A DNA stretch of 64,000 nt. Source: an uncultured Gammaproteobacteria bacterium (GTDB taxonomy: Bacteria > Patescibacteriota > Microgenomatia > CAZETR01 > Amesbacteraceae). Positions 5,732 through 54,032 of the stretch are shown here, piece after piece (position 1 is the stretch's first letter; each line of letters opens with the position of its first letter). The notes beneath the pieces were generated by a model. It did not search any database. It was given only the letters and a program-made list of their open reading frames with translations, and was not told the DNA's origin. The translations under genes were made by a program, and so were the position numbers. The stretch covers positions 460,470-524,469 of the forward strand of contig CAZFGX010000001.1 of the NCBI GenBank assembly GCA_964518565.1, given 5' to 3'.

Positions 5732-7144
5732 TTAAATAGGTAAATAATGTTCGTCTAAATACCAACAGAATCTGTCACCATCCTCAACGACAGCAACCTT
5801 TTTTAATTTTGGTTGCATCAATGCTTCACTGGCTGAAAGATCCATTTGGTAAGCTGCTGTATTTATAAACATGACTAGATCGCCTGGCTGAGGGATTTTT
5901 GATACAAATGTCTTGTGACTGTAAATAAGATTTTTTTCCAAGCAAAGATTTCCAGCAAAAAAGATGCCATGTTCACCTGATTCATATTCTTCGTCTGGTT
6001 GCCGATAGAGGATGACTGGATCTAACAAAATAGCTTGATCGGCTGGTACCAAGTCGTCTCGTTTGATATTGAGATGAACAAGAATCTCTCCTGAAGTGCC
6101 GTATTTTATTGATTCAACTTGTGAGACTGTAATTCCCACATGATCCAACAAGGCCTTACCCGGCTCGATATAAAGGTTAGCCATCGAGTCTTTAAGAAGT
6201 GATTGAGTATCTCCAGAATGCGTGTTTAATTGGCTTGTAAGAAGCGTAGTCAATTGTTCGTAACCTTTTGACTGATTGGCATAACGATGGAAGGTTGGAA
6301 TACCTTCCAAACGATCGTTTGTCTGTCGATATCCAAATGTTACCCCTGGCCAATGTAGAGCTTCAGATTGGCCCAGAATCCCTAATTTGAGAGCTGTTGA
6401 ATATTTATCTAGATCATTTGTATCTTCTAAGAAGACTTGCCTAAACCCTCCACCAATATCAATAATTGACGGTGAAAATCCTCTGTTTTGAAGCTCTTCC
6501 AAAACAGAAAAACATTGTTCAATTGCAGTAAGTCTCTCCTTTGCCTCAGAGGTATCTAAATGAAATGACAACCCTTTGAGATCAATACAATTAGAGTAAG
6601 TATTTAATAGAGTAATTGCAGCATCAAGATCTTTTATTGGAATCCCAAATCGACTGGGTTTATGGGAAGAAGAAAAGCCTGATAGACGCAAAAGTAATGG
6701 CTGTTTTGTTTGAAGTTTGCTCGCTAATTTAGAGACGTACTCCAACTCAATAAGACTGTCTATGCTGATCAGAACGGAGTGAGAAACTGCGAGATATAAA
6801 TATTCTTTATTCTTGGGGCCAGTCGCCAATATCTTGTTTCCTCTAAATCCGCACGACAGTGCATGTTTTAATTCGTTGGCCGACGCAACGTCTACATAGA
6901 TTTCATCTAAATGAGCCTGACGAACAAGAGCTGACGACTGATTGGCTTTGTGGGCATAATAAACCCTTCCTGACAAAGCAAGATTATTGAAGACACTTTT
7001 AAACTCCTCAATATTCTCAGAAAATATCTGAGGGAAAACAATATTTAGGGAACCACCCATGCATTGAACAAGGTTAATAAGTGCCTCTTTTTCAGCAATG
7101 AAACGAGAAACAATAGAGTGAATTTTGGGTTGCAAACGCAACAT
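5732..7144 (-). CDS. PLP-dependent decarboxylase, Orn/DAP/Arg decarboxylase (alanine-racemase fold) family
   Basis: YAHKANQ (PLP lysine), IDIGGGF glycine-rich motif; 470 aa; 3 nt upstream of the CysK-rhodanese gene. Confidence 0.75.
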   Translation of the reverse strand: MLRLQPKIHSIVSRFIAEKEALINLVQCMGGSLNIVFPQIFSENIEEFKSVFNNLALSGRVYYAHKANQSSALVRQAHLDEIYVDVASANELKHALSCGFRGNKILATGPKNKEYLYLAVSHSVLISIDSLIELEYVSKLASKLQTKQPLLLRLSGFSSSHKPSRFGIPIKDLDAAITLLNTYSNCIDLKGLSFHLDTSEAKERLTAIEQCFSVLEELQNRGFSPSIIDIGGGFRQVFLEDTNDLDKYSTALKLGILGQSEALHWPGVTFGYRQTNDRLEGIPTFHRYANQSKGYEQLTTLLTSQLNTHSGDTQSLLKDSMANLYIEPGKALLDHVGITVSQVESIKYGTSGEILVHLNIKRDDLVPADQAILLDPVILYRQPDEEYESGEHGIFFAGNLCLEKNLIYSHKTFVSKIPQPGDLVMFINTAAYQMDLSASEALMQPKLKKVAVVEDGDRFCWYLDEHYLPI

Positions 7145-7202
7145 ATGACAAACAAAATAAATAAAACCTACTTAGGTTAATAAGATCTGACGAAGTTGAT
7201 AG

Positions 7203-7667
7203 TTAGGAAGAAAAAGGAGGAGATCTGGGACTTTGAAGAGAGAATAATGGCTCAATAAATAGTTCAGGTGACTCATCTGTCACGTCAGGGTTAAAACTTT
7301 GTTCTGGAAGCTCAAGCAGGGCTATATTAGTATCAGTCGTTGCTGGTGCACAGCAAGGATGAGAAGTTGCATGGTCGCCATGGTCGGCATGTGCATCTAC
7401 TCGAGATAATAAGTAGCCTGGGATAACATGAGTAGTCAGAATGCCAGCAAGAATCAGATATGTGGTGACCTTCTTTGGAGATTTAAACGCCAATATGGCA
7501 AAACCGCCCAAAATAGCTATAGAAGTCATTAAAGCTAGTACTGACGACTTTGAACTTTGGGTAGTCGAAACAGTATGCATCTGGCCATGCTCCATAGCAC
7601 TGGCCTGAATAGGAGAGATGAAGAAGAGTCCAAAAAGTGTCAATAATAGTGCCAGTTTCTTATTCAT
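7203..7667 (-). CDS. secreted/membrane protein with a His-rich region
   Basis: Signal peptide MNKKLALLLTLFGLFFISPIQASA, internal TM, HADHGDHATSHPCC. Confidence 0.4.
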   Translation of the reverse strand: MNKKLALLLTLFGLFFISPIQASAMEHGQMHTVSTTQSSKSSVLALMTSIAILGGFAILAFKSPKKVTTYLILAGILTTHVIPGYLLSRVDAHADHGDHATSHPCCAPATTDTNIALLELPEQSFNPDVTDESPELFIEPLFSLQSPRSPPFSS

Positions 7668-7788
7668 GCTAACGCAATTGTATCTTATTGAAGCAATTTA
7701 TACAGAAAATCGGGTTCGTCTACTAATCGATGTTTAGAAGCTATTTATAGCATATATCTATAACAAAGATGGCAATGCTTAAGGCTGG

Positions 7789-8538
7789 CTATGCTTCTCT
7801 GATACCGAACATCTTAACAATGCGACTCTCGTCAATACCCAATACGTCATAAACCGTAATTTTTGAAAGCTTGCCAGTCTCTTCGTATGTTATTTCGGAA
7901 GTACGACCACGTACAAGCACAACTCTAGGCGGAACTTGCATCTTAGAAAGATTTGCAGCTATGTCAAATTGTTTTGGCGCAAGTAATGTGGGGTAAGACA
8001 TTGAGATGAGATAAACATTATCAGGTGCCTGGTCGGGTTTGCCCACGACACACAAAGAAGCCTTTGCACATATAGACTTTAATGCTTCGTTAACCTGCAC
8101 GTCAGTAAATTGTGCTGGTGTGTTAACACACAAAACTATAAGGTCATATTCAGAATAACATTTGGAATCCGAATATTTGGTTTGTTTTAGAAATTCAACA
8201 ATATCCCTAGTGCTTGCATGGTCATCTAGTGTAACTATTTCCATTTGCAATATTTTCAATCCTACTTGACCATCAATTACCACTTGTTTTGCAGCCATCA
8301 CATCTGGAGTGTTCGACTGTTTATTTGACTGCATAAAATACCTACTGTCGGGATCATACTCAATAACTCCCAGCAAGGCGATTGCTGCTTTAAACATTTC
8401 AAAAGCCCTCTTAAATTCTTGGTCCTTTAACTCTATCTCAGAATAAATCTGTGTCAGATACCAAAACGATTCAATTACCTGGCGAGGAGAATACCAGGAG
8501 TCTACCTCAAAAAGCACCTCCAGGTTATAGAAATGCAA
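7789..8538 (-). CDS. hypothetical protein
   Basis: 249-aa ORF with no recognisable motifs; overlaps the start of the recombinase remnant. Confidence 0.3.
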   Translation of the reverse strand: MHFYNLEVLFEVDSWYSPRQVIESFWYLTQIYSEIELKDQEFKRAFEMFKAAIALLGVIEYDPDSRYFMQSNKQSNTPDVMAAKQVVIDGQVGLKILQMEIVTLDDHASTRDIVEFLKQTKYSDSKCYSEYDLIVLCVNTPAQFTDVQVNEALKSICAKASLCVVGKPDQAPDNVYLISMSYPTLLAPKQFDIAANLSKMQVPPRVVLVRGRTSEITYEETGKLSKITVYDVLGIDESRIVKMFGIREA

Positions 8539-9678
8539 TGGAAAAACGACAAGGGGAAAGAGATATTGTTCCAGTAGACGGGCAGTTTGTGTTAGTAAGA
8601 AAGCTTTTTGAAGAATATTTAACAGAGAAATATTCTGTTCAAAGTCTTTGTAGATATGCTGAAGAAATAGGTGTCAAAAACACCAGAGGCAATCCAATAA
8701 GCAAGACTCAGCTTTACAAGGTCCTTAGCGACCCATTTTATACGGGGGTCAGGTATGTTTATAAATAAAAACTCTACACGAACGGCATTCATGCCAGGAT
8801 GATAACTGATCAACAATTCGATCGAATACAAGAAATACTTAATCAAAGATCGCATCCGAGAGGATCTATTAGAAAAGATCTTTTAACTGGGATAATGAAA
8901 TGTGGTCAATGTGGAAGATCGATAATTGCAGATGTAAAGGTTAAAAAATATAAAAATGGTAAATCCCAAACATTCATTTACTATCGATGTAGTAAAAAAT
9001 GGAATGGGCAGAAGTGTCTTCAAAAGTATGTCACGTCTCAAGATTTAGACCGACAAATAAATGAGATTTTGGACAATATTCAGCTACCCACTCAAATTGT
9101 TGACTGGGCATTAAAGTGGCTAAAAGTTATCCATTCCCATCAGATTGAATCCAAAATGGCTCAATACAAATCTTTAGAGCAGTCATATCAACAGTGCAAT
9201 CTTAAATTGTCCAGGATAGTCGACCTCGCATTAGCAGAATTGATTACCACAGAGGAAGCTATGGAAAAAAAAGAAGGAGCTAGAATCGAAAAAGGATGAT
9301 CTAAAAGAAAAGTTGGATAACATTGATTTGAGAGTAAATGAATGGAATAGTCTCGCTATAAATTCCTTTGAATTGGTAAAAAATATAAAACAGAAGTATG
9401 TCGAAGGAACCCCAGAACAAAAGAGAACAATTTTGCGGATTATTGGCTCGGACTTAAAGATCGTTAATAGAAAATTGGAAGTACAGCTCAGAACTCCATT
9501 TGAGTTAATTTCCAATAGTTTTAAAGAGATCGACAAAAATTTCAAGTTAGGACCCGATGATTTGGCCGATATGTCGGCCAATAGATTCGTTTCAGGAGAT
9601 CAAAAAAACATATGGGGTGGAAGACGGGACTTGAACCCGCAACCCCCAGATCCACAATCTGGTGCTCTAACCAATTGA
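8451..9678 (+). pseudogene. large serine recombinase (phage-integrase type) remnant: catalytic resolvase domain missing, one in-frame stop and one frameshift
   Basis: Three consecutive ORF fragments (8451-8768, 8799-9299, 9313-9678). They carry the recombinase domain (NPISKTQLYKVLSDPFYTG), the zinc ribbon (CGQCGRS...YYRCSKK) and a coiled-coil tail; ends at tRNA-His. Confidence 0.6.
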
Positions 9679-14679: not shown

Positions 14680-15825
14680 ATGAAAAAATATTTGCTTATT
14701 GGTCTGGGAATTATTTTAATTTTGTTGGGATTGCGAATCTATAAAACGTACAAAGGCTTTGCGCCCATACTCTCAAACTCACCCACAAAACCAATAGATA
14801 ATACTCCACAAAACACCACAGGCCTGCCACTCACAATAGTCCCAGGTTACAAAATATCTCTGTTTGCCACAAATTTGGGCAACCCACGAGACTTACAATG
14901 GGATCCTCAGGGAGTGCTTTTGGCTTCAATACCAGACCAAGGCCGAGTAGTCGCGCTGCCAGATGAAAACAAAGATGGCCAAGCAGACAAACCAGTTACA
15001 GTAGTATTTGGCCTGCACAAACCTCACGGACTAGCCTTTGCCAAAAATACTTTATATATTGGCGAAACGGATAAGGTGGTGAAATATGAATATGACGGCA
15101 AATTGTTTAAAGCCAACAAGCCACAAAAAATTCTGGATTTACCTGGCGGTGGAAATCATTGGACTAGACAACTACTCATAAAAGACAACCAGTTATTTAT
15201 CGCAATTGGATCTAGCTGTAATGTCTGCAAAGAGACTGATACTCGTCGTGCAACGGTTCAAGTAGCCAATTTAGACGGTACCAACCTTCACACTTTTGCC
15301 TCTGGACTCAGAAATTCACCCTTTTTAATAGAAAATCCCTACACCAAGGATATTTGGGCTACGGAAATGGGCAGAGATAATCTTGGCGACGACACACCGC
15401 CAGACGAAATAAATATCCTTAAAGCAGACAAAAACTATGGCTGGCCGATTTGCTATGGTCAAAATATTCATGACCAAAATTTTGATAAAAATACCTATAT
15501 TCAAAACCCCTGTAGTCAAACCCTACAGGCTACGGTAGATCTACCAGCTCACTCAGCACCTTTAGGCCTGGCCTTCGCATCAAAAGATACACTTCTGGTA
15601 GCTTTTCATGGTTCTTGGAATAGAAGCGTCCCAACAGGCTACAAAATCGTTTCCATCGATATAAAAACCAAACAAATTTCAGATTTTGTCACTGGCTGGC
15701 TGGTATCTCCAAAAAATGCCATTGGTCGACCGGTAGATTTATTGTTTGACTCACAAAAGAATTTATATGTCTCAGATGACAAATCCGGAAATATCTACAA
15801 GATCACTCCACTTTCGCCCCAATAA
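14680..15825 (+). CDS. secreted beta-propeller sugar dehydrogenase-like protein (sorbosone/glucose dehydrogenase family)
   Basis: N-terminal TM/signal, HGLAF, repeated propeller blades, C-terminal NLYVSDDKSGNIYKI. Confidence 0.55.
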   Translation: MKKYLLIGLGIILILLGLRIYKTYKGFAPILSNSPTKPIDNTPQNTTGLPLTIVPGYKISLFATNLGNPRDLQWDPQGVLLASIPDQGRVVALPDENKDGQADKPVTVVFGLHKPHGLAFAKNTLYIGETDKVVKYEYDGKLFKANKPQKILDLPGGGNHWTRQLLIKDNQLFIAIGSSCNVCKETDTRRATVQVANLDGTNLHTFASGLRNSPFLIENPYTKDIWATEMGRDNLGDDTPPDEINILKADKNYGWPICYGQNIHDQNFDKNTYIQNPCSQTLQATVDLPAHSAPLGLAFASKDTLLVAFHGSWNRSVPTGYKIVSIDIKTKQISDFVTGWLVSPKNAIGRPVDLLFDSQKNLYVSDDKSGNIYKITPLSPQ

Positions 15826-16096
15826 AGTCCAAGTATGGCAAGACCTTTTTAACTTCAGCTCTAAATTTTTCTGCCAGACCTGCAGAATATTTTGCCTTGC
15901 CACCTGACTCCATTTTGGAACACAGTTTACGCTCTGCGTCTTCCACGGCACGTAAAATTGGTCTTCCTAGACGGTTAAATTCTTCTTGTACTGTAATCTG
16001 ATCTTTCCCGTATAAATCATGGATGGGTTTAAATGCATCAAAATCCTGCTTATGTAAAGAGATCAATTCTTCGACTGCTTTTTTGTATAAAGTCAT
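15803..16096 (-). CDS. hypothetical small protein
   Basis: 97-aa ORF downstream of the vWA gene on the same strand. Confidence 0.3.
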   Translation of the reverse strand: MTLYKKAVEELISLHKQDFDAFKPIHDLYGKDQITVQEEFNRLGRPILRAVEDAERKLCSKMESGGKAKYSAGLAEKFRAEVKKVLPYLDFIGAKVE

Positions 16097-16097
16097 A

Positions 16098-17321
16098 TTA
16101 TTGTAAAAACCGTTTAAAATTCAATTTTGCGCTGGTGGCGCTAGTAATAGACGTCTCTATTACATCAGAGAATACATTTGCCAATGAATAAGAGTCAGGA
16201 GCAGTATACGTCTTCTTGACAAAGATTTTGTCCCCATTTAATACGGTATTTAACATTTGAATAGTTTTATCATAAATATACTGACTATTCGGTACATAAT
16301 CTTCTGGTCGAGGAGCCATCAAAACCGCATAAGAGTCTACTTCATCGGGTTTTTGTCCAAAGCGAGCTGAACCTTGATTAATCTGCCATGTACCAGGAGA
16401 CCACTGATAGGTTTGTGGTGCCAGACTGCATGCCAAATAATTCAAAGCTTGGTTACTGCAACCACCATTGTTTTCATCCAAACTACAATCAGACGTCCCA
16501 CAATTGGCATTCGTCAAAGCAGTATTTGGTAAACCGTCTGTGATAAGTACAAAAATCTTTTTTACCATTGGAGAAACACTATAGTAGCCGTCAGCTACCA
16601 TTCCCGGAGCTCCTAAATTCGTACCTGCACCATTTTGTGCCACAGGTGGTAATAAATTTGGCGAATCGCAAATCCAGGCATCGTCCTGGGTGTACCATGT
16701 TTGTGCGGTCAATTTATTCAGAGTAGTTTGATGATCGTTTGTTGGATACTGAGTCCAATCAGCCGCTCGCCGGGTCGCAATAATACCCAAATAATATTTA
16801 TCTTTGCTGGTTTGATCTAGATTTGTAATATTTGTCACCAAAGACACAAAGGCTTGTTGGGCACGTGTGATCCGATGTGTGGAGTCGCTAGGGGAGACTG
16901 GATCATTCATAGACGGTGAACAATCAAATCCTACAATAAATTCCACCTTATTAAATTTTTCTAGACTTCCTGAAATAAGTTCAGATTCAACCTTCATATT
17001 ATTAGACGCATATGGCCATTTGGCCAAAAAGGTAATCAGTGTTCCTCCGGGTGTTGCTGTAGTATTTACATCTAGAGTTTTTCCCGCCCCGATATTTTGA
17101 GAATAAGTACCTGGTGTATAGCTAGGATAAAACAACATTTTTGTCACCACATCCACTGTTTCAAATTCAGCTCGATACGACGCGTTGGTCAAATCATAGA
17201 AAGACTGTTTTCGATTAATAGCCAGTAGTAAACGAGACTCCCAGGCTAACAACAAAAAAATCATCACTACTGACACCATAACCACGACAACAAATGAAAC
17301 AATGCCTTTTGTATTTCTCAT
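16098..17321 (-). CDS. pilus-associated von Willebrand factor A (vWA) domain protein with N-terminal TM anchor (module A)
   Basis: MIDAS DxSxS (GFDCSPSMN), VLITDGLPNT, many extracellular Cys; paralog of 20936-22150. Confidence 0.7.
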   Translation of the reverse strand: MRNTKGIVSFVVVVMVSVVMIFLLLAWESRLLLAINRKQSFYDLTNASYRAEFETVDVVTKMLFYPSYTPGTYSQNIGAGKTLDVNTTATPGGTLITFLAKWPYASNNMKVESELISGSLEKFNKVEFIVGFDCSPSMNDPVSPSDSTHRITRAQQAFVSLVTNITNLDQTSKDKYYLGIIATRRAADWTQYPTNDHQTTLNKLTAQTWYTQDDAWICDSPNLLPPVAQNGAGTNLGAPGMVADGYYSVSPMVKKIFVLITDGLPNTALTNANCGTSDCSLDENNGGCSNQALNYLACSLAPQTYQWSPGTWQINQGSARFGQKPDEVDSYAVLMAPRPEDYVPNSQYIYDKTIQMLNTVLNGDKIFVKKTYTAPDSYSLANVFSDVIETSITSATSAKLNFKRFLQ

Positions 17322-17818
17322 AGAGTGACTGCCTGTTTTCGATTAGATACAACAATATCAACAGTATCAGTAGTAGTGGACACATTGCTCCGCATGGTCA
17401 ATGAAATTTTATAGCTTGGATATACAGTGCCATTAGAGTCTACTGCAGTAGTAAACGCAGTAATTTTAAATGCGTTTACCACGACATTTGAACCACTAAT
17501 GGGGGATTCGGTATTGGCTGCAATATCCTTTTTTACCAATACGCCATTGGAAATATAATAAGAAGTTTGGGTATTTATAGTCAGAGTTGCATTACTGTTT
17601 CCATCGCAACTCGTACAAGTAAATGTATTACCCCACTTGATCGCATTTGTTAGTTCTACTGCTGCATCGTTTTTAAATTGTTCTAGAGATTCTTGGTTGA
17701 CTCCTTGAGAATTTTTTGTTGCTGCAGACACAAAAATAAACGTAGATACCGACAAGACAATAGCTGCTAGCCCCATAGACAAAACCAGTTCGATGAGTGT
17801 AAAACCCTTTTGTCTCAT
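17318..17818 (-). CDS. type IV pilin-like (minor pilin/pseudopilin) protein
   Basis: Prepilin N-terminus MRQKGFTLIELVLSMGLAAIVLS; paralog of 22147-22662 (both end ...SNRKQ). Confidence 0.7.
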   Translation of the reverse strand: MRQKGFTLIELVLSMGLAAIVLSVSTFIFVSAATKNSQGVNQESLEQFKNDAAVELTNAIKWGNTFTCTSCDGNSNATLTINTQTSYYISNGVLVKKDIAANTESPISGSNVVVNAFKITAFTTAVDSNGTVYPSYKISLTMRSNVSTTTDTVDIVVSNRKQAVTL

Positions 17819-18339
17819 AAGTTAGAAATAAGTAAAGAGTTACTAATACATTTTGTTTGTTTATTTTCATCCCACTTCACAATTGATGTCAAAACCCTAC
17901 TATGAGTGTCAGCCACATATCCAGAATTGCAAGTTAAAGTAAAACTAGGTTCAGTTACACATGCATCTGTTTGAGCTGGTTTTTGTAGCGTCCCATCATT
18001 AGTATTCCGACACCAAGCAGACACGATCAGTGCTCGGCTATAACGATTTTTTACTAGTTCAGTAGCTCCAGCCGCCAAAGACTGCAGCTGCCAAGCATTT
18101 TGTGGAGAAGACACAGAAGTTACTGTATATCTCCCAGTAGAATAGGCATTCCAGTTCGTCAAAAAAACATTGTAGGCAGATTCCTGTGTTTGTTGCAACA
18201 ACAATGCAGCCTCAGTACCGTATTGTGCTTGTCGATTTCTTACAATCATCAGAGCAATAAGCGGATAGATAGAACTGACTAAAATAGCAATAATCCCAAT
18301 AGAAATCAGTGTATCGATGAGTGTAAATCCTGGTCTCAT
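17815..18339 (-). CDS. type IV pilin-like (minor pilin) protein
   Basis: MRPGFTLIDTLISIGIIAILVSS; paralog of 22659-23186 (shared AYNVFL..W motif). Confidence 0.7.
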   Translation of the reverse strand: MRPGFTLIDTLISIGIIAILVSSIYPLIALMIVRNRQAQYGTEAALLLQQTQESAYNVFLTNWNAYSTGRYTVTSVSSPQNAWQLQSLAAGATELVKNRYSRALIVSAWCRNTNDGTLQKPAQTDACVTEPSFTLTCNSGYVADTHSRVLTSIVKWDENKQTKCISNSLLISNL

Positions 18340-18391
18340 ACCCTATACCATACTAGCACTTTTTGCGTTTGTTGACTAAAATACGCATACT

Positions 18392-18425
18392 GCGGGTATA
18401 GCTCAATGGTAGAGCACCAGTTTTC
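18392..18425 (+). repeat. duplicated 5' portion (nt 1-34, through the anticodon 5' stem and loop start) of tRNA-Gly(TCC)
   Basis: gcgggtatagctcaatggtagagcaccagttttc is identical to the start of the full tRNA at 18745. Confidence 0.8.
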
Positions 18426-18487
18426 TCCGCCAATAGTTTCACAATTTGGCGGATCCGCCTGAATGCAAAGCTTTCGGCGGACAAACT

Positions 18488-18754
18488 ATGTATTACACAT
18501 ACGTACTACATTGTGAGTCTTTAAAAAAGCAAGTTTTTTATACCGGGTATTGTGAAGATCTAAAAAACAGAATAGAAGAACATAAATCTAAAAAAGTACA
18601 GACTACTAAAGTATTTGATAAAATCACTTTGGTCTACTATGAAGCCTGTTTAAATAAAACAGATGCTCGTAAACGAGAAATTCAGTTAAAAACTGGCTTT
18701 GGTAGAGGATATTTGAAAAATAGATTAAAATCCTATTTACAAATGCGGGTATAG
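18488..18754 (+). CDS. GIY-YIG nuclease superfamily protein (UPF0213/YhbQ-like)
   Basis: YTYVLHCES...FYTGYCEDLKNRIEEH...LVYYEA...ARKREIQLK; the last 10 nt overlap the 5' end of tRNA-Gly. Confidence 0.75.
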   Translation: MYYTYVLHCESLKKQVFYTGYCEDLKNRIEEHKSKKVQTTKVFDKITLVYYEACLNKTDARKREIQLKTGFGRGYLKNRLKSYLQMRV

Positions 18755-18818
18755 CTCAATGGTAGAGCACCAGTTTTCCAAACTGGCTACAGGGGTCCGA
18801 TTCCCCTTACCCGCTCCA
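18745..18818 (+). tRNA. tRNA-Gly (anticodon TCC)
   Basis: Acceptor gcgggta/tacccgc, anticodon loop ttTCCaa, CCA encoded. Confidence 0.85.
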
Positions 18819-18847
18819 AGAGTTGCATTAAGGCGTATAGTAAAGAT

Positions 18848-19231
18848 ATGACAGGGTATGTAGCAGATATCGAAAAGTTAACAGAAGAAAACCAAAACTT
18901 TAGACAAGTCTTGTTTACCAGTCAACATGTCCAAGTCGTTGTCATGCACCTTCAGCCAAAAGAGTCTATTGGAGTAGAGGTTCATGAAGTGGTGGACCAA
19001 TTTCTACGCATCGAGCACGGAGAGGGAGTAGTAATAATGAACGATCAAGAACATTCTATTAAATCAGGCTATGCAATAGTTGTGCCTGCCGGCACAAAAC
19101 ACAATGTCATAAACACATCTTCTACCGAGTCGTTGAATCTCTACACAGTCTACTCACCTCCACACCACAAAGATAAGATCATCCACAAAACAAAACAAGC
19201 GAGCCAGTCAGACACGACCGATCATATCTAA
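18848..19231 (+). CDS. cupin domain protein
   Basis: Two-His cupin motifs (HEV...H...G, PAGTKHNVIN). Confidence 0.6.
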   Translation: MTGYVADIEKLTEENQNFRQVLFTSQHVQVVVMHLQPKESIGVEVHEVVDQFLRIEHGEGVVIMNDQEHSIKSGYAIVVPAGTKHNVINTSSTESLNLYTVYSPPHHKDKIIHKTKQASQSDTTDHI

Positions 19232-19234
19232 CTT

Positions 19235-19813
19235 CTAAAATAGTGTCTTAATAAAAGCTAGAAACGTTTGTTTATGATGATAAAACACATATCCATTAAG
19301 AAATAATAGTCCTGGAAATATAAACGCTTTCTCTGCTAGTGCTCCGGTTGTCACTCTCAAACTACGAATAGGTGGAAAGCCCAATTTCCATTGAATAGGA
19401 AACACCCAAGGCACCCCTTCTTTTGTCAGACTATCTGCCACCAAATGAGATAAAAAGCCGATCATAAATGCCCACCATACAACATTCATATCTACTAAAA
19501 TTACGCCCTGCACTTTGATTAATAGCCACCATAGAGCTTTGCCTACGAGCCACATACCCAAGAGTGAATGTGTAATAAACCGATGGCTACCAAACGTAGG
19601 GTGGACTACTCGTCCAAGAATCGATCCCGATCCAGCTGGCATTCGCTGCCAAAGCTCTGAAGAAGGTTCATCTAGATCCGGCGCCAATCCTCCGAGAAAC
19701 AATGCTATCACTCCAGCGATAGCCGTCGCTATACTCATAGCAGGAATTGGGAAGTAGGCAATGGCCAATACACCTAACGTAGCTGCAAACAGATCATGGG
19801 TTCGGGCAGTCAT
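19235..19813 (-). CDS. membrane-bound metal-dependent hydrolase-like protein (DUF457/YdjM-like)
   Basis: Polytopic membrane protein with an N-terminal HD...G pattern resembling YdjM-family proteins. Confidence 0.45.
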   Translation of the reverse strand: MTARTHDLFAATLGVLAIAYFPIPAMSIATAIAGVIALFLGGLAPDLDEPSSELWQRMPAGSGSILGRVVHPTFGSHRFITHSLLGMWLVGKALWWLLIKVQGVILVDMNVVWWAFMIGFLSHLVADSLTKEGVPWVFPIQWKLGFPPIRSLRVTTGALAEKAFIFPGLLFLNGYVFYHHKQTFLAFIKTLF

Positions 19814-19819
19814 GTGAAG

Positions 19820-20935
19820 TTATTTTTTACAGTCAGTACCCAGACCTCCGACGCAATTTTCAGTCGGAGCCTTACCTCGTTCAGGACATTTTTCCGAGTA
19901 AATACAGGCCTTGTCAGATACCAATGCCAGTTGAGTAGCTGTCAGTTCTGTATTAGACAATGCCAATTTATCAGCATCTTTAAACTCATATGCTTTCCAA
20001 TCACCATCATATTTGCTCCCATTTATATATAGCAGAGTAGGGGTTTTACTTTTTAGACTCAAGGAGTCATAAAATGTGCCCAATGTTGCGGCAGATTTAT
20101 GTTTATGAATCATTTCTCCAAAGCCGTCATGGATATGGATGTCTGGATTTTTTTCGTTATACATTGCAAAAGACAGTGACATTTTTCTGCCATCTACAAA
20201 CAAAACAAAATCCGCATGTTCATGGACTTTTTGATCAGAAATTGGTGTAGGCGTAATTTTTTGTTTGAAATCTCGAACTAGCGATGCAAAAGCATCGTAA
20301 CTTCCAGGCAATTCAATTAATCGGCCGTTAACAAAAAATGTCGGAGTCCCTGTAATCCTTAAAGCATCACCTGACAATTGATCATCGTGAACTTTTTTCT
20401 CGATTTCAGTTGAGGCAAAGTCTTTTTTAAATGTTTCGACATTTAAATTTAGTGATTTTGCATAGTCAGAAAAAGTCGCTAGCTCATCTTTTGTCTTGTT
20501 CCATTCATCTTGCTTGTCATATAGTAGTTCATGCATTTCCCAATATTTGCCTTGCTTATTAGCCGCTTCGGCCGCTTTTGCAGCACCCCAGGCATGTTGA
20601 TGAATTTGTGTTAGGGGATAATTTCTATACACCAAGCGTGCAGAATCTTTAAATTCATCCAAAAGTCTTTTTACAATCGGCTGATATGCCTTACATGATG
20701 GACATTGAAAATCTCCATACTCCACTATAGTAATCTGTGCATTTTGTGGACCCACTACGTGATCCATCGAACCAACTTCCAATTCCTTTGGCATGACAAA
20801 ATTTGTATCGTTCAAATTTGCCGTTGGACTGGGTTTAATTCTACCTGCAGACCATATACCAATACCGATTAACACCAGACAAAAAGCGGCTACTGCCAAA
20901 ATTATCCGTTTATCCATGACCGAATTGTAGCACAA
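19820..20935 (-). CDS. DsbA-family thiol:disulfide oxidoreductase with N-terminal TM anchor and Cys-rich C-terminal extension
   Basis: CPSC active site in a thioredoxin fold (DFQCPSCKAY...RNYPL); C-terminal KACIYSEKCPERGKAPTENCVGGLGTDCKK. Confidence 0.7.
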   Translation of the reverse strand: MCYNSVMDKRIILAVAAFCLVLIGIGIWSAGRIKPSPTANLNDTNFVMPKELEVGSMDHVVGPQNAQITIVEYGDFQCPSCKAYQPIVKRLLDEFKDSARLVYRNYPLTQIHQHAWGAAKAAEAANKQGKYWEMHELLYDKQDEWNKTKDELATFSDYAKSLNLNVETFKKDFASTEIEKKVHDDQLSGDALRITGTPTFFVNGRLIELPGSYDAFASLVRDFKQKITPTPISDQKVHEHADFVLFVDGRKMSLSFAMYNEKNPDIHIHDGFGEMIHKHKSAATLGTFYDSLSLKSKTPTLLYINGSKYDGDWKAYEFKDADKLALSNTELTATQLALVSDKACIYSEKCPERGKAPTENCVGGLGTDCKK

Positions 20936-22150
20936 CTATGGTGTAGGTGTCGGATCCAGCGTCCGATTAAATGTGATGGTAAATGCTGATGTAAAAATAG
21001 ATTGAAATATGGATTTAAATGATTCAGCCAATGATTCTGCATTCGCATTTACAAAAGGTGGTTGTTTGACATAGTCCGGATTACTAAATACATCCATGGT
21101 CAATTGATAAGCATTTTTAATAGTAGATGGGTCGTATGCATTTTGCTCAGCTACTGTCACGGCATAGACGTCTACTTGTGGTAAACGAGTTCCAAATATA
21201 CCCGTACCACTCCAATCTTTATTCGTAGTTGCCAAACTACACTTTAAATTATTTACCGCCTGAATCGTACATGCACCAGTATCTTCTGGCTCACTACATT
21301 GGGTTACTCCACAAGCCAGATCCGTCCTTGTCGTGTTTGGAAGTCCATCAGTAAATAAGATATATGCTTTTTTGACCCGAACATTATCGGTAAAATATGT
21401 CCGATTCAAAATAAGACCCGAATCGCCCAAATTTGTCCCAGCATTTCCTGGAATATCCATAAGACCTGTTGTGCGACAAAGCGGACTATTGGAAACAGAG
21501 TTCCAAGTACCAGAATTATCTACCAAATTTTGCAAACGAGAAAGATCATTGGTTGGCTTTACTTGTCCCAAACTATCAGTCGCCCAAGCAGCTGTACGTT
21601 GAAATGGCATGAGTCCTAAATAAAATTTGTCTCGAGTCGCAACAGGAGTAATGTTTGTAATCTCTCTAATAAATGCGCTTAACGCCTTTTGCAATTGGTA
21701 TATTCTAGATGTTCCACAGGTCGGACATGCTTTACTATTCATACTTGGTGAACAATCAATCCCCATGGCAATCTCTACTTTGTCAAAGTTTACAGTGCCT
21801 TCACCAGAATTTGTTTTGGTCAGTTGAAAACTTGTAGATGCATATGGCCAGCGAGCCAAAAAATCTAATGTCCGATTTTCAGATGTGCCAGTGGCTGTGA
21901 CTTGGAGTGATTGTCCTGGGCCAAAATTACGCAAATAATTTGAACCCATATCAAAATTGGGATATTTTAAATATCGGTGCACCAAATCAAATACTTCTGA
22001 TTCAGCAGCGTAGTCTGCTGCCAAAATGTCCGACAAAGAACGATGACGATAAACTGCCAACAATAGACGCGACTGCCAAGTAAACACGATGAACAACGCG
22101 ACAATCGAAATCATAATGACAATAATGATTGTGGCAATTCCTTTTTTCAT
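20936..22150 (-). CDS. pilus-associated vWA domain protein with N-terminal TM anchor (module B)
   Basis: MIDAS GIDCSPSMN, ILFTDGLPNT; paralog of 16098-17321. Confidence 0.7.
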   Translation of the reverse strand: MKKGIATIIIVIMISIVALFIVFTWQSRLLLAVYRHRSLSDILAADYAAESEVFDLVHRYLKYPNFDMGSNYLRNFGPGQSLQVTATGTSENRTLDFLARWPYASTSFQLTKTNSGEGTVNFDKVEIAMGIDCSPSMNSKACPTCGTSRIYQLQKALSAFIREITNITPVATRDKFYLGLMPFQRTAAWATDSLGQVKPTNDLSRLQNLVDNSGTWNSVSNSPLCRTTGLMDIPGNAGTNLGDSGLILNRTYFTDNVRVKKAYILFTDGLPNTTRTDLACGVTQCSEPEDTGACTIQAVNNLKCSLATTNKDWSGTGIFGTRLPQVDVYAVTVAEQNAYDPSTIKNAYQLTMDVFSNPDYVKQPPFVNANAESLAESFKSIFQSIFTSAFTITFNRTLDPTPTP

Positions 22151-22662
22151 TGTGTGATTGTTTGTTTACGGTTAGATGCAATAAATGAAAAAGTATCCTT
22201 CAAAATACTCGAGCCCTTTGCTTGTAATTCTATATCGATTGAATAACTAGGATAAGGTGAAATCCAAGCAGATCCATCCCAACTGCGTACGGCTGACCGA
22301 TCGCACACCAAAAATCTATTTACTTGTACATTGGCAGAGGTCAGAGCAGATCCTGCCCTTTGTAGAGACTGATTATTTACAGCATATACAACCGTATCAA
22401 TCGTCAGCGATGAGTTTTGCATTGAGCTCGAATTGCAATCACAATTCTGACAACTAAACACCTTTCCCCAGCGTATGGCATTTGATAAATCTGTAGAAAT
22501 ATCATTCTTAGTCTGCTCAAAGAGTTCCTGAGACTTACTGGATTGATTCGTCCCAGTAATATTTAACAAAAATCCTGAAACCACCAAGAACACGATACTA
22601 GACATGGCTAATGCCACCAATATTTCAAGTAGTGTCATACCTGGTTGTAGAGTAGTTTTCAT
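22147..22662 (-). CDS. type IV pilin-like (minor pilin) protein
   Basis: GMTLLEILVALAMSSIVFLV N-terminus; ends SNRKQTITQ like 17318-17818. Confidence 0.65.
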   Translation of the reverse strand: MKTTLQPGMTLLEILVALAMSSIVFLVVSGFLLNITGTNQSSKSQELFEQTKNDISTDLSNAIRWGKVFSCQNCDCNSSSMQNSSLTIDTVVYAVNNQSLQRAGSALTSANVQVNRFLVCDRSAVRSWDGSAWISPYPSYSIDIELQAKGSSILKDTFSFIASNRKQTITQ

Positions 22663-23186
22663 AATTTTGTAATGAGTAAAGTAGCCTGAATATGTTTAGG
22701 TGCCAATTTTTCCCGCCAATCAACAGACGTAGTGACCAATTTACTGTCTGGATCGATTGCGTATCCAGCATCACACCCAGGATTTGGTTCAGGTGGTGAT
22801 TGCAATTTGCCCTGATCTTCGCCAGTCCCATTAACCAACCTACATACAGGCGATACACGTATAGTTCGGCCAAACATACCTACTTCATCCACTTCACCTA
22901 CTGCCATTGGCACCAGCGTCCAACCATCTGGAGAAGTACCGTCCCCAGGATCAGTCCGCGAAACTGCATAACGATAATTACCTTCACCAAAACTATCCCA
23001 ATCATCTAAAAATACGTTATAAGCCACCTCTGCCCCTTGCTGCAAAATTATCGCCGCCTGACTATCGTATTGGAGTTGTTTACTTCTGGTAATTAGCCAA
23101 CCCACAACTGGATACACACTCACAAAAATGACTACAAGCATTGCCACAGACAAAACCACTTCCAACAATGTCACACCTGATTTCAT
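22659..23186 (-). CDS. type IV pilin-like (minor pilin) protein
   Basis: MKSGVTLLEVVLSVAMLVVIFVSV; homologous to 17815-18339. Confidence 0.65.
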   Translation of the reverse strand: MKSGVTLLEVVLSVAMLVVIFVSVYPVVGWLITRSKQLQYDSQAAIILQQGAEVAYNVFLDDWDSFGEGNYRYAVSRTDPGDGTSPDGWTLVPMAVGEVDEVGMFGRTIRVSPVCRLVNGTGEDQGKLQSPPEPNPGCDAGYAIDPDSKLVTTSVDWREKLAPKHIQATLLITKL

Positions 23187-23629
23187 GGACCCACCTCCAC
23201 AATACCCGTTGCGCTGATACGCACCTGAATGGTTTTTGCATTTGGTGCCCGTAAAATAATTGTTTTCGCCGTAGTGTTACCTGTCCCTTTCTCAAACCAG
23301 ATGCTAAACATAGCTCCAGAAAAAACCAGTGGATTTTCTATCGAATATTCAGCCTGATTAGATGGAGACGGATCAGAGCTAGAGGTACGCGAACGGAATC
23401 GGTATGTAGTTGCATCCTGCTGGGTGACACCCCACTCCTTATTATCTTTGGCTTCGCGAGCAAAAATATGTGCCTGTGTCAAAACGTTTTTCAATTTTTC
23501 TGCCGAAGAGTTTAATGCCTGGTTGTTTCGCATTGAAGAGATGACAAAAAAACTTGGCACACTCACAATTCCAACAATTGCAATTACAATCAGTAACTCA
23601 ATGAGGGTCATGGCAGCAGCAAATTTCAT
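23183..23629 (-). CDS. type IV pilin-like protein
   Basis: MKFAAAMTLIELLIVIAIVGIVS, a class III signal-peptide-like N-terminus. Confidence 0.7.
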   Translation of the reverse strand: MKFAAAMTLIELLIVIAIVGIVSVPSFFVISSMRNNQALNSSAEKLKNVLTQAHIFAREAKDNKEWGVTQQDATTYRFRSRTSSSDPSPSNQAEYSIENPLVFSGAMFSIWFEKGTGNTTAKTIILRAPNAKTIQVRISATGIVEVGP

Positions 23630-23638
23630 AAACTAATA

Positions 23639-24106
23639 CTAGCGTATCAAAACTTCAGCTCTGGTGCTAATAATAGGCAAATCTGGCACGATTGTTTTGA
23701 TACTCTCTGCAGGAATAGATACATGATACGTTCCAGGTACATCAGCTACACCCTCAATACTCCCTAGGCGAACTGTACCTGAAAATGCCTGTGAATACAT
23801 GAGTGTACTAGAAGTCAAAGAAATAGCTGGGTCAGCCTTAATTGTGCCTGACACTTGCGGAATAATCCCATACTTATCTTTATATTGACCCATGATATAA
23901 AAATGAAACTTTTGCCCAGGCGCAGCAACTACTGCTGGTGGATCAAACCAGATCCGTAATTTACCTGCTTCTTCGTCTGCTTTTACAAAAAAAGGTAGAT
24001 CACCTTTATTTAATACTCCTGCAATCAAGACCGGTAAAAACGCCGCAATTCCCACTACACCAAAAAACATGCTTTTCGCTTTTGATTCAGCCCGAAACAT
24101 ATCCAT
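23639..24106 (-). CDS. membrane-anchored hypothetical protein (first gene of pilin/vWA module B)
   Basis: N-terminal TM FFGVVGIAAFLPVLIAGVL; 155 aa. Confidence 0.4.
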   Translation of the reverse strand: MDMFRAESKAKSMFFGVVGIAAFLPVLIAGVLNKGDLPFFVKADEEAGKLRIWFDPPAVVAAPGQKFHFYIMGQYKDKYGIIPQVSGTIKADPAISLTSSTLMYSQAFSGTVRLGSIEGVADVPGTYHVSIPAESIKTIVPDLPIISTRAEVLIR

Positions 24107-24147
24107 ACCGTATATAGTTATACAGTATTTTTAGCCCTCAAAACTAG

Positions 24148-24222
24148 TCGGGGATAGAGGACTCGAACCTCCGACCTCACGCTCCCAAAGCGCGCGCTCT
24201 AAGCCAACTGAGCTAATCCCCG
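24148..24222 (-). tRNA. tRNA-Pro (anticodon TGG)
   Basis: Minus-strand cloverleaf cggggat...atccccg, anticodon loop ttTGGga. Confidence 0.8.
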
Positions 24223-24244: not shown

Positions 24245-24622
24245 TTACAATTGCGCGTATAAATCCACTTGATAACCGTCTGGATCAGCCACCACAGCAT
24301 ATCGCTGACCCCAAAACGCATCCCATGGCGATTTGACTACAGTATAGCCAAATTCAGCTACTTGAGCTGCAATACGGTCTACTTCTGTAGCAGAGTCGTA
24401 TTGAATGGCAAAATGTGAATGGTTTCCCGGTTTTGGATCTTGGCCTATCAAAGACTCTACCAAATTCCGACTATCAATCATCAATCGTGCCGCACCCGAA
24501 TTGGTCGCCTCGACGTGCTGTTCATCGGTTGCAAGTTGGGGAAATTCAAATCCCAATACTCGATAAAACGCTACCGTCTTGGCCATATCCGACGCACACA
24601 CTCCTACAGCATTTAGATTCAT
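24245..24622 (-). CDS. VOC/glyoxalase family protein
   Basis: FYRVLGFEF... VOC fold; 125 aa. Confidence 0.6.
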   Translation of the reverse strand: MNLNAVGVCASDMAKTVAFYRVLGFEFPQLATDEQHVEATNSGAARLMIDSRNLVESLIGQDPKPGNHSHFAIQYDSATEVDRIAAQVAEFGYTVVKSPWDAFWGQRYAVVADPDGYQVDLYAQL

Positions 24623-24630
24623 AATCTCAG

Positions 24631-24701
24631 AGCGGGTGAGGAGAATCGAACTCCCGCATCCTCCTTGGCAAGGAGGTGTTCTACCATTGAACTACACCCG
24701 C
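24631..24701 (-). tRNA. tRNA-Gly (anticodon GCC)
   Basis: gcgggtgtagttcaatggtagaacacctccttGCCaaggagg...; acceptor gcgggtg/cacccgc. Confidence 0.85.
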
Positions 24702-24752
24702 AGGTCGGCTTATTTTACACGAGTCTGTTTCCGCGATAAAGTACAAGCACTG

Positions 24753-26189
24753 ATGAGCTGGAAATTGTTAGGTTTTTTTGTGCTTGGTTTACTCATTCGT
24801 TTTCTCTATTTTCCCAACGATATTTCATTTATTTACGACCAGGCCAGAGATGCATATGCCGCTCAAGAGCTGCTTCATGCAAACCTAAAAATAGTCGGTC
24901 CACCCACCGCTATTCCTGGCTTGTACCACGGCAGTCTTTTTTATTATCTACATGCACCGCTATTATTAGTCTCTCACGGTAATCCAGAATTTATCTCCGC
25001 GTGTATGCGGCTCTACAATGCATTGGGGATAATTCTTATATTTTTTGTAGCCAAAAAGATTTTCGACTGGCGCACAGGACTTATTTCCTCTCTAATATTT
25101 ACCACCTCCTTCGAACAAACCCAATTTGCTATGTTTCTTGGCCACCCTGCATTTGCTGTTCTGTCTGTATTGGGCTTTTATTATGGTCTCGCTATCTCCC
25201 TACCATTGGCTGCATTTTGTTTGGGCATGGCAATCCAATTTCACTTTGCCATGATCAGCCTCATACCTGTGTTTCTTATTTGGCTCATCTTTCATCGCCA
25301 GACATACTCAAGGAAAATATATCTTCAGACACTTCTTGCCGCTGTTATATCGCTGAGCACTTTTATTCTCGCCGAATTCAAATTTCATTTTCGTACACTA
25401 AAAACACTCTCCACCTTAGCTCATACATCATCTGGTCAAGGGCTTCACATATCAAATTTATTTCACATTTTCGTTCGTTATATCCAAGACAATCTAGCGA
25501 CTACATCAATAATTGTTTACCTAGTAGCCATTGTGTTACTTTTTGCCTTTGCATATACGAGAAAAAAGATCTTAATTTTGTGGCTATTAGCAGGTCTAGT
25601 GCCGTACGTGTTCGATCATTCATCTATCCCTATTTACTATTACACGATTGGCGGTTCATTGAGTGTAATTATTATGTCTGCCTATCTGATCAATAAACTT
25701 CCTCAAATTGCTCGAACTTTAATCCTATTTTTCATCATCTATACAAACCTGATCCACATCACTCAAACAAATAGAATTGGCGTCATGCCAGAAATTACGG
25801 TCCAATCTGGCATGCTACTTTCAGATCAAAAACAGCTCATTGATGCTGCGTACCAGCAAAGCGATGGTCAACCATTTGCGATAAATGCTGTCACAATTCC
25901 ATATCAAATAAATACTACGTGGAGCTATCTATTTGAATGGTATGGTAAATCAAAGTATGGATATCTACCAATCTGGTCCAGTGAAACAGCAATAGGCTAT
26001 GCAGGCAATCTACCACTTCAAACAAACAGATCACTCCTACCAGCAAAACGCTTTACCATTATCGAGCCAGATAGGGGACTAGACTCTCGACTAAAAAAGC
26101 AATATCTAGAAAAAGAAAATATTTTTACGACAGTAGTTTCAGAAAAAAAAATCGGCCGCCTGACACTCCAGATCAGGGAAAAGAAATAA
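24753..26189 (+). CDS. polytopic membrane protein, possible GT-C fold glycosyltransferase (ArnT/PMT-like)
   Basis: About 11 TM segments, N-terminal loop with D/E-rich FIYDQARDAYAA; the ORF-track start at 24579 overlaps tRNA-Gly, so the start is placed at ATG 24753. Confidence 0.45.
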   Translation: MSWKLLGFFVLGLLIRFLYFPNDISFIYDQARDAYAAQELLHANLKIVGPPTAIPGLYHGSLFYYLHAPLLLVSHGNPEFISACMRLYNALGIILIFFVAKKIFDWRTGLISSLIFTTSFEQTQFAMFLGHPAFAVLSVLGFYYGLAISLPLAAFCLGMAIQFHFAMISLIPVFLIWLIFHRQTYSRKIYLQTLLAAVISLSTFILAEFKFHFRTLKTLSTLAHTSSGQGLHISNLFHIFVRYIQDNLATTSIIVYLVAIVLLFAFAYTRKKILILWLLAGLVPYVFDHSSIPIYYYTIGGSLSVIIMSAYLINKLPQIARTLILFFIIYTNLIHITQTNRIGVMPEITVQSGMLLSDQKQLIDAAYQQSDGQPFAINAVTIPYQINTTWSYLFEWYGKSKYGYLPIWSSETAIGYAGNLPLQTNRSLLPAKRFTIIEPDRGLDSRLKKQYLEKENIFTTVVSEKKIGRLTLQIREKK

Positions 26190-48624: not shown

Positions 48625-48861
48625 ATGATGAAAGATTTTCTTCATTTTATTATTGCTCCACTTTTGGATCAGCCAGAAAGCCTAAATATTTCCGTGAACG
48701 AAAATGCAGTTACAGTTGAAGTTGCCGAAAGCGATACTGGCAAAGTAATTGGCAAGCATGGCTCAGTAATTCATAGTCTTCGCGTATTGCTCAAAACATT
48801 TTGTATCAACAACAATTTGCCTCAAGCTGCCCTAATTCTTAACGCTCCTAAAAAGGATTAG
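48625..48861 (+). CDS. KH-domain RNA-binding protein (YlqC-like)
   Basis: VIGKHGSVIHSLRVLL KH GxxG loop; conserved position after rpsP. Confidence 0.7.
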   Translation: MMKDFLHFIIAPLLDQPESLNISVNENAVTVEVAESDTGKVIGKHGSVIHSLRVLLKTFCINNNLPQAALILNAPKKD

Positions 48862-50034: not shown

Positions 50035-50037
50035 AGT

Positions 50038-51054: not shown

Positions 51055-51072
51055 AAAAAATATTATAGTACA

Positions 51073-52258: not shown

Positions 52259-52282
52259 CGCTCAAGTATAAAGTTTCTCAAA

Positions 52283-52310
52283 GAAAAAAACACCGCCCTT
52301 GCGAGCGGCG
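52283..52310 (-). terminator. rho-independent terminator downstream of pilA
   Basis: On the minus strand: cgccgc-tcgcaagg-gcggtg, then T7. Confidence 0.5.
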
Positions 52311-52336
52311 TAGAAATCTTACGATTTTTTAAAACA

Positions 52337-52801: not shown

Positions 52802-52825
52802 TTGTTGCTCACCTCCCTCAAAGAA

Positions 52826-54031: not shown

Positions 54032-54032
54032 A

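Follow-up and report, generated by a model that had tools for sequence, protein, structure and literature searches.

Introduction

Type IV pili are near-universal in genome-reduced, host-dependent bacteria, of which Nanosynbacter lyticus TM7x (Saccharibacteria) is the one genetically tractable case; to our knowledge, the ligands of their pilus tips are largely unknown. In Pseudomonas and Myxococcus, the tip-associated adhesin PilY1 acts together with the minor pilins. PilY1 is not itself a pilin; it is over 1000 amino acids (aa) long and has a C-terminal beta-propeller, and in Pseudomonas its N-terminal region is a Cys-containing von Willebrand factor type A (vWA) domain. In Streptococcus sanguinis, PilB is a bimodular vWA minor pilin that has been shown experimentally to be an adhesin and is predicted to sit at the tip (PMC8179133; PDB 7b7p and 7ba2). 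Its metal binding has been assayed by thermal shift with Mg2+ and Mn2+, modular pilins are widespread, candidate phyla included, and pilin-vWA fusions are already known (PMC8179133). In TM7x, PilX1 and PilX2 are the largest minor pilins, with accessory domains and no predicted PilD signal, and efficient binding to the host requires PilX2 (PMC11623550). Here we analyse a stretch of 64,000 nucleotides (nt) of contig CAZFGX010000001.1, which we call the window, and in it two related gene modules, module A (genes A1 to A3) and module B (genes B0 to B4 followed by a DsbA-like gene). We propose, with a probability of roughly 0.7, that these are two sets of minor pilins that present tip adhesins on a pilus, module B being a translationally coupled six-gene cassette and module A an extra, diverged copy of its I-J-K part, where the letters follow the GspH-I-J-K order. 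The source contig is 1,001,365 bp long and has a GC content of about 40%, which fits a genome-reduced bacterium.

Results

The vWA pilins A3 and B4

A3 and B4, each about 405 aa long, were described in the initial annotation as membrane-anchored vWA proteins with an intact metal ion-dependent adhesion site (MIDAS). The evidence that both carry a vWA domain comes from profile searches, a structure model and conserved motifs. An exhaustive search with a profile, run over 1.84 billion cluster representatives, collects 126 proteins, 72 of them below E 1e-30, and nearly all are about 400 aa long and alike at the N-terminus. A word-indexed protein search finds only three relatives of this family, and a scan of a reference-genome collection with the family alignments finds none. 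The weak tail of the profile search consists of Pfam-positive vWA proteins (E 3e-7 to 1e-3), with a Tad+VWA protein (P0113) in its distant part. A solid family member (P0022) has a precomputed VWA_2 match, and VWA_2 is also matched at E 6e-4 to 2e-3 in three of the metagenome loci described below (L015, L017 and L019). Searched against PDB sequences, the family profile retrieves vWA structures with E-values of 4e-8 to 1e-4. Among them are PilB (E 1e-6), to which the three MIDAS motifs align residue for residue, and the sortase-pilus tip proteins SpaC, RrgA and GBS104; a single-sequence search of the PDB with B4 gives nothing useful. The sole NCBIfam match of the two proteins is a weak one to the Cys-rich vWA adhesin CglB, and neither has a match to a GspK, PilX or ComGG model in Pfam or NCBIfam.

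In the family alignment of 51 sequences, the residues of the MIDAS are nearly invariant (Asp 51/51, Ser/Thr 51/51, Ser 50/51, Thr 49/51 and Asp 51/51). In B4 they are D132, S134, S136, T239 and D268 (DxSxS...T...D), and A3 keeps an intact site (D133-C-S-P-S137, then GTNLG and TDG). Six Cys are also conserved across the 51 members, and one of them lies within the MIDAS motif itself (D-C-[ST]-x-S). A3 has exactly these six, whereas B4 has eight, including a C142-x-x-C145 loop beside the MIDAS. This loop (C142-P-T-C145, window 21718-21729) comes directly after DxSxS; a loop with two Cys occurs there in many relatives, and it is missing from A3, P0003, P0007, P0010 and P0011.

Structure prediction had been proposed together with the initial annotation. 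Run on B4 alone with the family alignment, AlphaFold2 (AF2) gives a model with a mean predicted local distance difference test (pLDDT) score of 89.1, in which a 61-residue N-terminal helix (residues 2-62) and a four-stranded sheet (72-113) make up a pilin module that is followed by an alpha/beta domain (124-396), the vWA domain. The best Foldseek matches of this model in the PDB are the S. sanguinis PilB entries 7ba2 and 7b7p, over 380-387 columns; there are 119 PDB matches at E<=1e-3, and almost all of those listed are vWA or integrin I domains. Of the family members, 50/51 have Gly immediately before the hydrophobic segment, and all have I, L, V or M at position +5. Gly at -1 without Glu at +5 is the signature of the GspK/PilX/ComGG minor pilins, which argues that A3 and B4 are modular minor pilins, and more than vWA proteins anchored in a membrane. 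Because of this pilin architecture, an extracellular topology is to be expected for both. The vWA domain and the MIDAS of the initial description thus stand, and pilin (helix, sheet and Gly at -1) is a better term than membrane-anchored. The analogy drawn there to PilVWX and PilY1 survives as far as minor-pilin sets ending in a vWA/MIDAS protein are concerned; its other half, a separate PilY1-like adhesin, does not, since the pilin in the K position appears to bear the vWA domain itself. We rejected a PilY1-type assignment for A3 and B4, which are 404-407 aa long, have an N-terminal pilin module, and show no propeller in the model.

A different possibility is that A3 and B4 are membrane vWA proteins of the BatA/BatB or TadG type that never enter a filament, and that their adjacency to pilin genes is a matter of the operon only. 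The family profile does match BatB-type vWA structures (3ibs, 4rck and 4jdu) as well as the Tad-domain protein P0113, and A3 and B4 lack both Glu at +5 and an N_methyl match. However, GspK, PilX and ComGG likewise lack this Glu, and a pilin module made of Gly at -1, a 61-residue helix and a four-stranded sheet is foreign to Bat proteins, which is why we rejected the Bat type. The TadG type was rejected since Pfam finds no Tad or TadE domain (PF13400 or PF07811) in either protein. In addition, PilB is the best match over the whole length of the structure, and the genes overlap the upstream pilin genes by 4 nt. We give this possibility very little credence.

Gene layout and the small minor pilins

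All eight open reading frames (ORFs) of the two modules lie on the minus strand, with the coordinates that had initially been annotated (Table 1). In pairwise alignments, A3 and B4 are 35% identical (E 7e-70), A1 and B2 34% (E 2e-36), and A2 and B3 33% (E 1e-28), a paralogy of the two modules that, at the level of protein sequence, is far above chance. The homology seen in the initial annotation is therefore borne out, and so are the motifs it had listed (AYNVFL..W, SNRKQ and DCSPSMN, all present) and the GIY-YIG, cupin, YdjM and DsbA genes that it had placed between the modules, each of which scores above its Pfam cut-off. Start/stop overlaps of 4 nt (ATGA) join the genes inside each module, except that 9 nt separate B0 from B1 and 18 nt lie between B4 and the ATG of the DsbA gene, and both modules therefore look like translationally coupled operons. 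A scan for promoters and terminators finds sites no more numerous than in shuffled sequence.

A six-frame regular-expression scan of the window finds prepilin-type N-termini only in A1, A2, B1, B2, B3 and the major pilin of the machinery locus. A2, B1 (with Ala at -1), B2 and B3 have the class III motif (Gly/Ala at -1 and Glu at +5) and are predicted PilD substrates, and A1 has Asp, not Glu, at +5. Prepilin N-termini had been attributed to all small ORFs; the attribution holds for these five, with Asp in A1, and fails for B0. The Pfam N_methyl model is above cut-off in A2 (29.1 bits) and B1 (24.4 bits), borderline in B3 and below cut-off in A1 and B2, and the prepilin domain TIGR02532 is above cut-off in A2, B1 and B3. 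Other NCBIfam matches are weaker. B1 matches GspH below threshold (5.8e-7) and ComGD across nearly its full length, A1 and B2 match ComGE and GspI weakly, and A2 and B3 have weak ComGF, PilV and PpdC-like matches. Most of these fall mainly within the N-terminal helix, the exceptions being B1 with ComGD and B3 with PilV, and the weak GspH, ComGD, ComGE and ComGF matches follow the canonical H-I-J-K gene order. The largest subunit comes last in its set, both in the window and in six contigs with a whole or partial cassette. B2 has two conserved Cys.

Table 1. Features of the window discussed in the text. In N-terminal motifs, a slash follows position -1.
Feature	Position	Strand	Description
A1	17815-18339	-	174-aa minor pilin, N-terminus MRPG/FTLID; paralog of B2
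A2	17318-17818	-	166-aa minor pilin, RQKG/FTLIE; paralog of B3
A3	16098-17321	-	407-aa putative modular vWA minor pilin; paralog of B4
B0	23639-24106	-	155 aa, predicted membrane-anchored with a cohesin-like beta-sandwich ectodomain; first cassette gene
B1	23183-23629	-	148-aa minor pilin, GspH/FimU/ComGD-like; N-terminus MKFAAA/MTLIE
B2	22659-23186	-	175-aa minor pilin, putative GspI/PilV/ComGE position; MKSG/VTLLE; paralog of A1
B3	22147-22662	-	171-aa minor pilin, putative GspJ/PilW/ComGF position; QPG/MTLLE; paralog of A2
B4	20936-22150	-	404-aa putative modular minor pilin, GspK/PilX position; pilin module 1-113 and vWA domain 124-396; paralog of A3
DsbA-like gene	19820-20917	-	membrane-anchored thiol-disulfide oxidoreductase; sixth cassette gene
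Type IV pilus machinery	48848-56865	-	PilB, PilT, PilC, major pilin, PilD, PilM, PilN/O-like; Pfam T2SSE, T2SSF, N_methyl, Peptidase_A24, PilM_2
PilB, PilT, PilC, PilD, PilM	50038-56865		within the machinery
Major pilin	52337-52801		within the machinery
PilD	51545-52258		prepilin peptidase; A24_N_bact and Peptidase_A24
159-aa ORF	51073-51552	-	within the machinery; weak T2SSG match
97-aa ORF	15803-16096	-	starts 2 nt past the A3 stop
Half tRNA	18391-18425		first copy of the 35-nt direct repeat; orphan
Half tRNA	18744-18778		second copy of the 35-nt direct repeat; 5' half of the intact tRNA-Gly(tcc)
GIY-YIG gene	18446-18754		small gene within the 353-nt unit between the repeat copies
tRNA-Gly(tcc)	18745-18818		
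tRNA-Pro(tgg)	24147-24222		
tRNA-Gly(gcc)	24630-24701	-	
PMT_2-like ORF	24579-26189	+	536-aa membrane protein, TTG start

Conservation of the module B cassette

Relatives of B4 or B0 are found in metagenome contigs, which we number as L loci. Four independent contigs (L004, L008, L009 and L011) have the whole cassette, six genes in the order B0-like, H-, I- and J-like pilins, vWA pilin, and a DsbA of 343-377 aa, and L001 and L002 have the visible parts of it in the same order. The distant relatives L017 and L019 keep the pilin set and are missing the adjacent DsbA. In L015, going by ORF sizes only, pilin-sized ORFs come before the vWA protein and no same-strand gene comes directly after. In L019, a 369-aa prepilin with a PA14 domain is found just before the vWA pilin (7007-8116 and 8113-9384), and the tip set of this relative would therefore have two different adhesive modules.

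The first cassette gene, B0, had been read as a prepilin. B0 has no class III motif or other prepilin N-terminus and no homology to pilins, it has no match in Pfam or NCBIfam, and Pfam matches none of 15 members of its family, which comprises 14 clusters. Its AF2 model (pLDDT 83.6) has a transmembrane helix (residues 9-31) and then an all-beta domain (50-154), for which Foldseek ranks cohesins first, although marginally (E 6e-5 to 1e-3, TM-score 0.5-0.6) and among other beta sandwiches. B0 thus models as a membrane-anchored, cohesin-like beta-sandwich protein, and is no pilin. It is without cysteines, and a B0-like gene is always the first of the cassette (L001, L004, L008, L009 and L011). It may act as a docking partner, a chaperone or an assembly factor.

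The DsbA-like gene had been placed between the modules. It is found directly downstream of the vWA pilin in five contigs (L002, L004, L008, L009 and L011), and this conservation makes it the sixth member of the cassette and not a spacer. The product matches Pfam Thioredoxin_4 with 99.5 bits (3e-28) and DSBA with 58 bits (1.4e-15), and its active site, C72-P-S-C75, is invariant in 5 orthologs, a CPxC site being common to the orthologs. The C-terminal domain (residues ~230-365) has no Pfam match. It contains invariant HxHxD, HxH and HxH motifs and ends in a tail with four invariant Cys (CIYSxxCPxRGxxPxExCVGGLxTxC), a pattern of His and Cys that suggests a metal-binding or redox-relay domain. The link between this enzyme, with its Cys-rich tail, and the adhesins that the initial annotation had drawn is stronger than proposed there, because the gene is a conserved member of the cassette.

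Module A and its surroundings

Module A corresponds to the I-J-K part only and has no counterparts of B0, the H-like pilin and DsbA. A second module is found in no relative whose flanks are usable. Among the 1.84 billion representatives, A3 has no relative closer than ~35% identity, and the closest relative of A1 is the L001 ortholog of B2, with 46% identity. In a neighbour-joining tree, A3 is the longest branch within the subclade of B4, and it is sister to B4, or to B4 plus P0002, in only ~10/100 bootstraps. If the duplication within the genome that had been proposed is meant as a recent one, it finds no support in this tree; as far as sequence comparison goes, module A is an old or fast-evolving partial copy, for which duplication and transfer are both possible origins. 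In L002, L009 and the window, a GSDH-like gene follows DsbA at a distance of 3-5.5 kb, and the genes between the two differ. In the window, this variable segment holds YdjM, cupin, tRNA-Gly, GIY-YIG and module A.

Such a partial copy could also be the non-functional remains, decaying or silent, of a cassette that was duplicated or acquired horizontally. The missing B0, H-like and DsbA genes, the long branches, the Asp at +5 of A1, and the neighbouring GIY-YIG gene with the duplicated half tRNA at its flank would all be in keeping with decay. However, the three ORFs are intact and translationally coupled, A3 keeps the MIDAS and all six conserved Cys, and an H-like pilin and DsbA could be provided in trans by module B, which is 3 kb away. 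We consider a remnant highly unlikely, and treat module A as a second minor-pilin set.

The tRNA genes deserve a comment of their own. Each module was said to be bounded by a tRNA (Gly or Pro), and literally this is so, with tRNA-Gly(tcc) and tRNA-Pro(tgg) at the stated places, but the window has 12 tRNAs and the adjacency may therefore be coincidence. Next to A1 there is an exact 35-nt direct repeat. One copy belongs to the intact tRNA-Gly(tcc), of which it makes up the 5' half as far as the anticodon loop, and the other is an orphan half-tRNA; the 353-nt unit between the copies contains the small GIY-YIG gene. The arrangement suggests that a GIY-YIG cassette has inserted into the tRNA-Gly gene or duplicated a part of it. 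Three metagenome contigs end at window position 18420, just upstream of A1, and are 100% identical to the window. The shared end is due to the 35-nt exact repeat, and we rejected strain variation as its reason on account of the repeat and of the 100% identity.

Two further ORFs lie at the edges of the modules. The 97-aa ORF that starts 2 nt past the A3 stop runs into the 3' end of the GSDH-like gene, which is convergent to it. Gene calls in metagenome contigs include this ORF, which has no family match or predicted membrane segment and may be co-transcribed with module A. Beyond tRNA-Pro(tgg), the TTG start of the PMT_2-like ORF overlaps tRNA-Gly(gcc) and an opposite-strand glyoxalase gene, and the true start of this protein is probably further downstream.

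Selection and strain variation

At 33-35% identity, synonymous sites of the paralogs are saturated, and we therefore compared strains to obtain the rates of nonsynonymous (dN) and synonymous (dS) substitution and their ratio, omega. The second strain is represented by the NCBI metagenome contig JAHZTE010372584.1 (L013), with 96.3% identity to the window across 1908 bp. For B4, dS is 0.173, dN is 0.0054 and omega is 0.03. The vWA domain has 26 synonymous and 0 replacement changes. All four replacements in B4 fall in residues 87-96 of the pilin module (T87D, S90P, E91D and D96N; window 21865-21894); elsewhere in the protein there are 43 changes, all of them synonymous. The cluster could be a small recombination tract or a locally selected surface loop. 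The vWA pilin of module B is under strong purifying selection, a result that covers module B alone and not module A. Three other samples include module A, one of them also module B, and all are 100% identical to the window and therefore carry no information on variation.

These numbers bear on the proposal made with the initial annotation, that the modules are fast-diversifying determinants of host specificity in an assumed epibiont, built like PilVWX with a PilY1-like protein and multiplied by duplication. Some of the evidence goes in that direction. Within their families, A1, A2 and A3 have the longest branches, a second module is absent from all other sampled genomes, and the segment between the DsbA and GSDH-like anchors in which module A is located is a variable one. 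On the other hand, with an omega of 0.03 and no replacements in the vWA domain, ongoing diversification of the module B adhesin is not supported; the four replacements that do occur are in the pilin module, the other copies of module A are uninformative, and the adhesin would be a pilin itself, with no PilY1-type protein. A lack of elevated divergence had been named at the outset as the outcome that would count against diversification, and for module B this is in part what we find (omega 0.03 at dS 0.17). Rapid diversification for host specificity is thus possible, but we find it doubtful.

Pilus machinery and proposed mechanism

The window contains one complete type IV pilus machinery, 25 kb away from the modules and the sole one visible in it. 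PilB, PilT, PilC, PilD and PilM are identified by Pfam matches (Table 1), and PilO by a weak match. A 159-aa protein in the same locus, with a weak T2SSG match and an N-terminal hydrophobic segment, has no Gly/Glu5 cleavage motif and may be an uncleaved pilin-like component.

In the mechanism that we propose, the PilB/T/C/D/M machinery would do the assembly, and the I-, J- and K-like subunits would come together in a ternary membrane complex that primes the filament, after the model of type II secretion and type IVa pili. This complex would stay at the tip, with the H-like subunit linking it to the major pilin, so that an assembled pilus would show one vWA domain at its tip. There, the metal site of the MIDAS and the disulfide-stapled loops could bind a ligand on another surface, most plausibly that of a host cell. 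Ligand binding has been demonstrated in this way for PilB (PMC8179133) and put forward for the accessory-domain pilins PilX1 and PilX2 of TM7x (PMC11623550). Outside the cytoplasm, DsbA would oxidise the six to eight Cys of the vWA pilin and the Cys of the small pilins. Pili built with one set or the other would differ in their tips, and module A may reuse B1 and DsbA in trans.

Several results weigh against this proposal. The Pfam VWA model has no match in A3 or B4 even at E<=1, and neither protein reaches the cut-off of N_methyl. Profile searches of the PDB with the B1, B2 and B3 families retrieve generic pilin N-terminal helices only, which leaves the H, I and J identities unconfirmed; we infer the H-I-J-K assignment from gene order, relative size, the last subunit without Glu at +5, and sub-threshold matches. 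Finally, strong purifying selection on B4 fits a conserved ligand better than a variable host receptor.

The sub-threshold matches also allow a reading in which the two sets belong to a short pseudopilus for competence or of a type II secretion-like kind, and the vWA domain binds a target other than a host. The best of these matches are indeed ComGD, ComGE, ComGF, GspH and GspI, the window shows only one machinery, and DNA uptake has been raised as a possible role of pili in Saccharibacteria (PMC11623550). Nevertheless, the vWA/MIDAS domains that have been studied on bacterial pili are adhesins (PilB, PMC8179133; SpaC, RrgA and GBS104), the PilT retraction ATPase that is present here is typical of dynamic type IVa pili, and a distant relative pairs its vWA pilin with a PA14 pilin. 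A pseudopilus seems to us distinctly unlikely, and we retain the assignment to tip adhesins of a pilus.

We can take the proposal one step further, tentatively and in the knowledge that the step is rather unlikely to hold. The cassette may be an undescribed, self-contained pilus-tip adhesin system of ultrasmall bacteria that brings its own folding enzyme (DsbA) and a docking or chaperone partner (B0), and module A may add a second vWA tip. If this is true, module A, which is unique to this lineage, would widen the range of surfaces or hosts that are bound.

Discussion

The locus is a concrete candidate for what the pilus of such a bacterium sticks to. The vWA pilins form a family of about 100 clusters without database annotation, putative pilins that present an adhesion domain of the MIDAS type. 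Standard domain models miss both their pilin and their vWA parts, and surveys of modular pilins therefore undercount them. What is new is a divergent, unannotated family in which the terminal pilin lacks Glu at +5 and has a Cys in the MIDAS motif, together with a conserved cassette that includes a cohesin-like anchor and its own two-domain DsbA, and a second I-J-K set specific to this lineage. As pilin-vWA fusions and H-I-J-K sets were already known, the locus adds a variant and no new principle.

The closest described protein is S. sanguinis PilB. Like PilB, A3 and B4 have a pilin module followed by a C-terminal vWA domain with a DxSxS...T...D MIDAS. Unlike PilB, to which they are only 12-13% identical, they are without the Glu5 class III motif, they are missed by the Pfam N_methyl and VWA models, and their family has six conserved Cys, one of them in the MIDAS (DC[ST]xS). 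The loci also differ, the vWA pilin here being the last of an H-I-J-K-like operon that comes with a dedicated DsbA, which is not the layout of the S. sanguinis pil locus. In gene order, module B is like FimU-PilV-PilW-PilX and GspH-I-J-K, with four consecutive coupled pilin genes, small ones first and the largest, without Glu5, last. In contrast to those systems, there is no membership at the level of sequence families here, and module A has no H-like member. In GspK, the extra domain is an alpha-domain placed within the pilin sheet; in A3 and B4, it is a vWA domain.

Nanosynbacter lyticus TM7x resembles the window in having two sets per genome and in a largest pilin with an accessory C-terminal domain and a non-canonical signal peptide. 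Compared by description, the accessory domains of TM7x are a beta-jelly roll and a seven-bladed beta-propeller, with no vWA, and each set there has its own major pilin and filament. PilY1 differs as well: A3 and B4 are pilins of ~405 aa themselves and have no propeller. The order of genes in TadE-TadF-TadG is again similar, with two small pseudopilins before a large one that often has a vWA domain; unlike in Tad/Flp systems, the N-termini here are of the G/FTLIE type and not of the Flp type, and the machinery is PilB/T/C/M/D. Finally, A3 and B4 are like SpaC, RrgA, GBS104 and Myxococcus CglB in being candidate surface adhesins with a vWA/MIDAS domain, and like CglB in being Cys-rich. Anchoring and assembly are wholly unlike, as SpaC, RrgA and GBS104 are attached by LPXTG/sortase and CglB is a lipoprotein of the gliding machinery.

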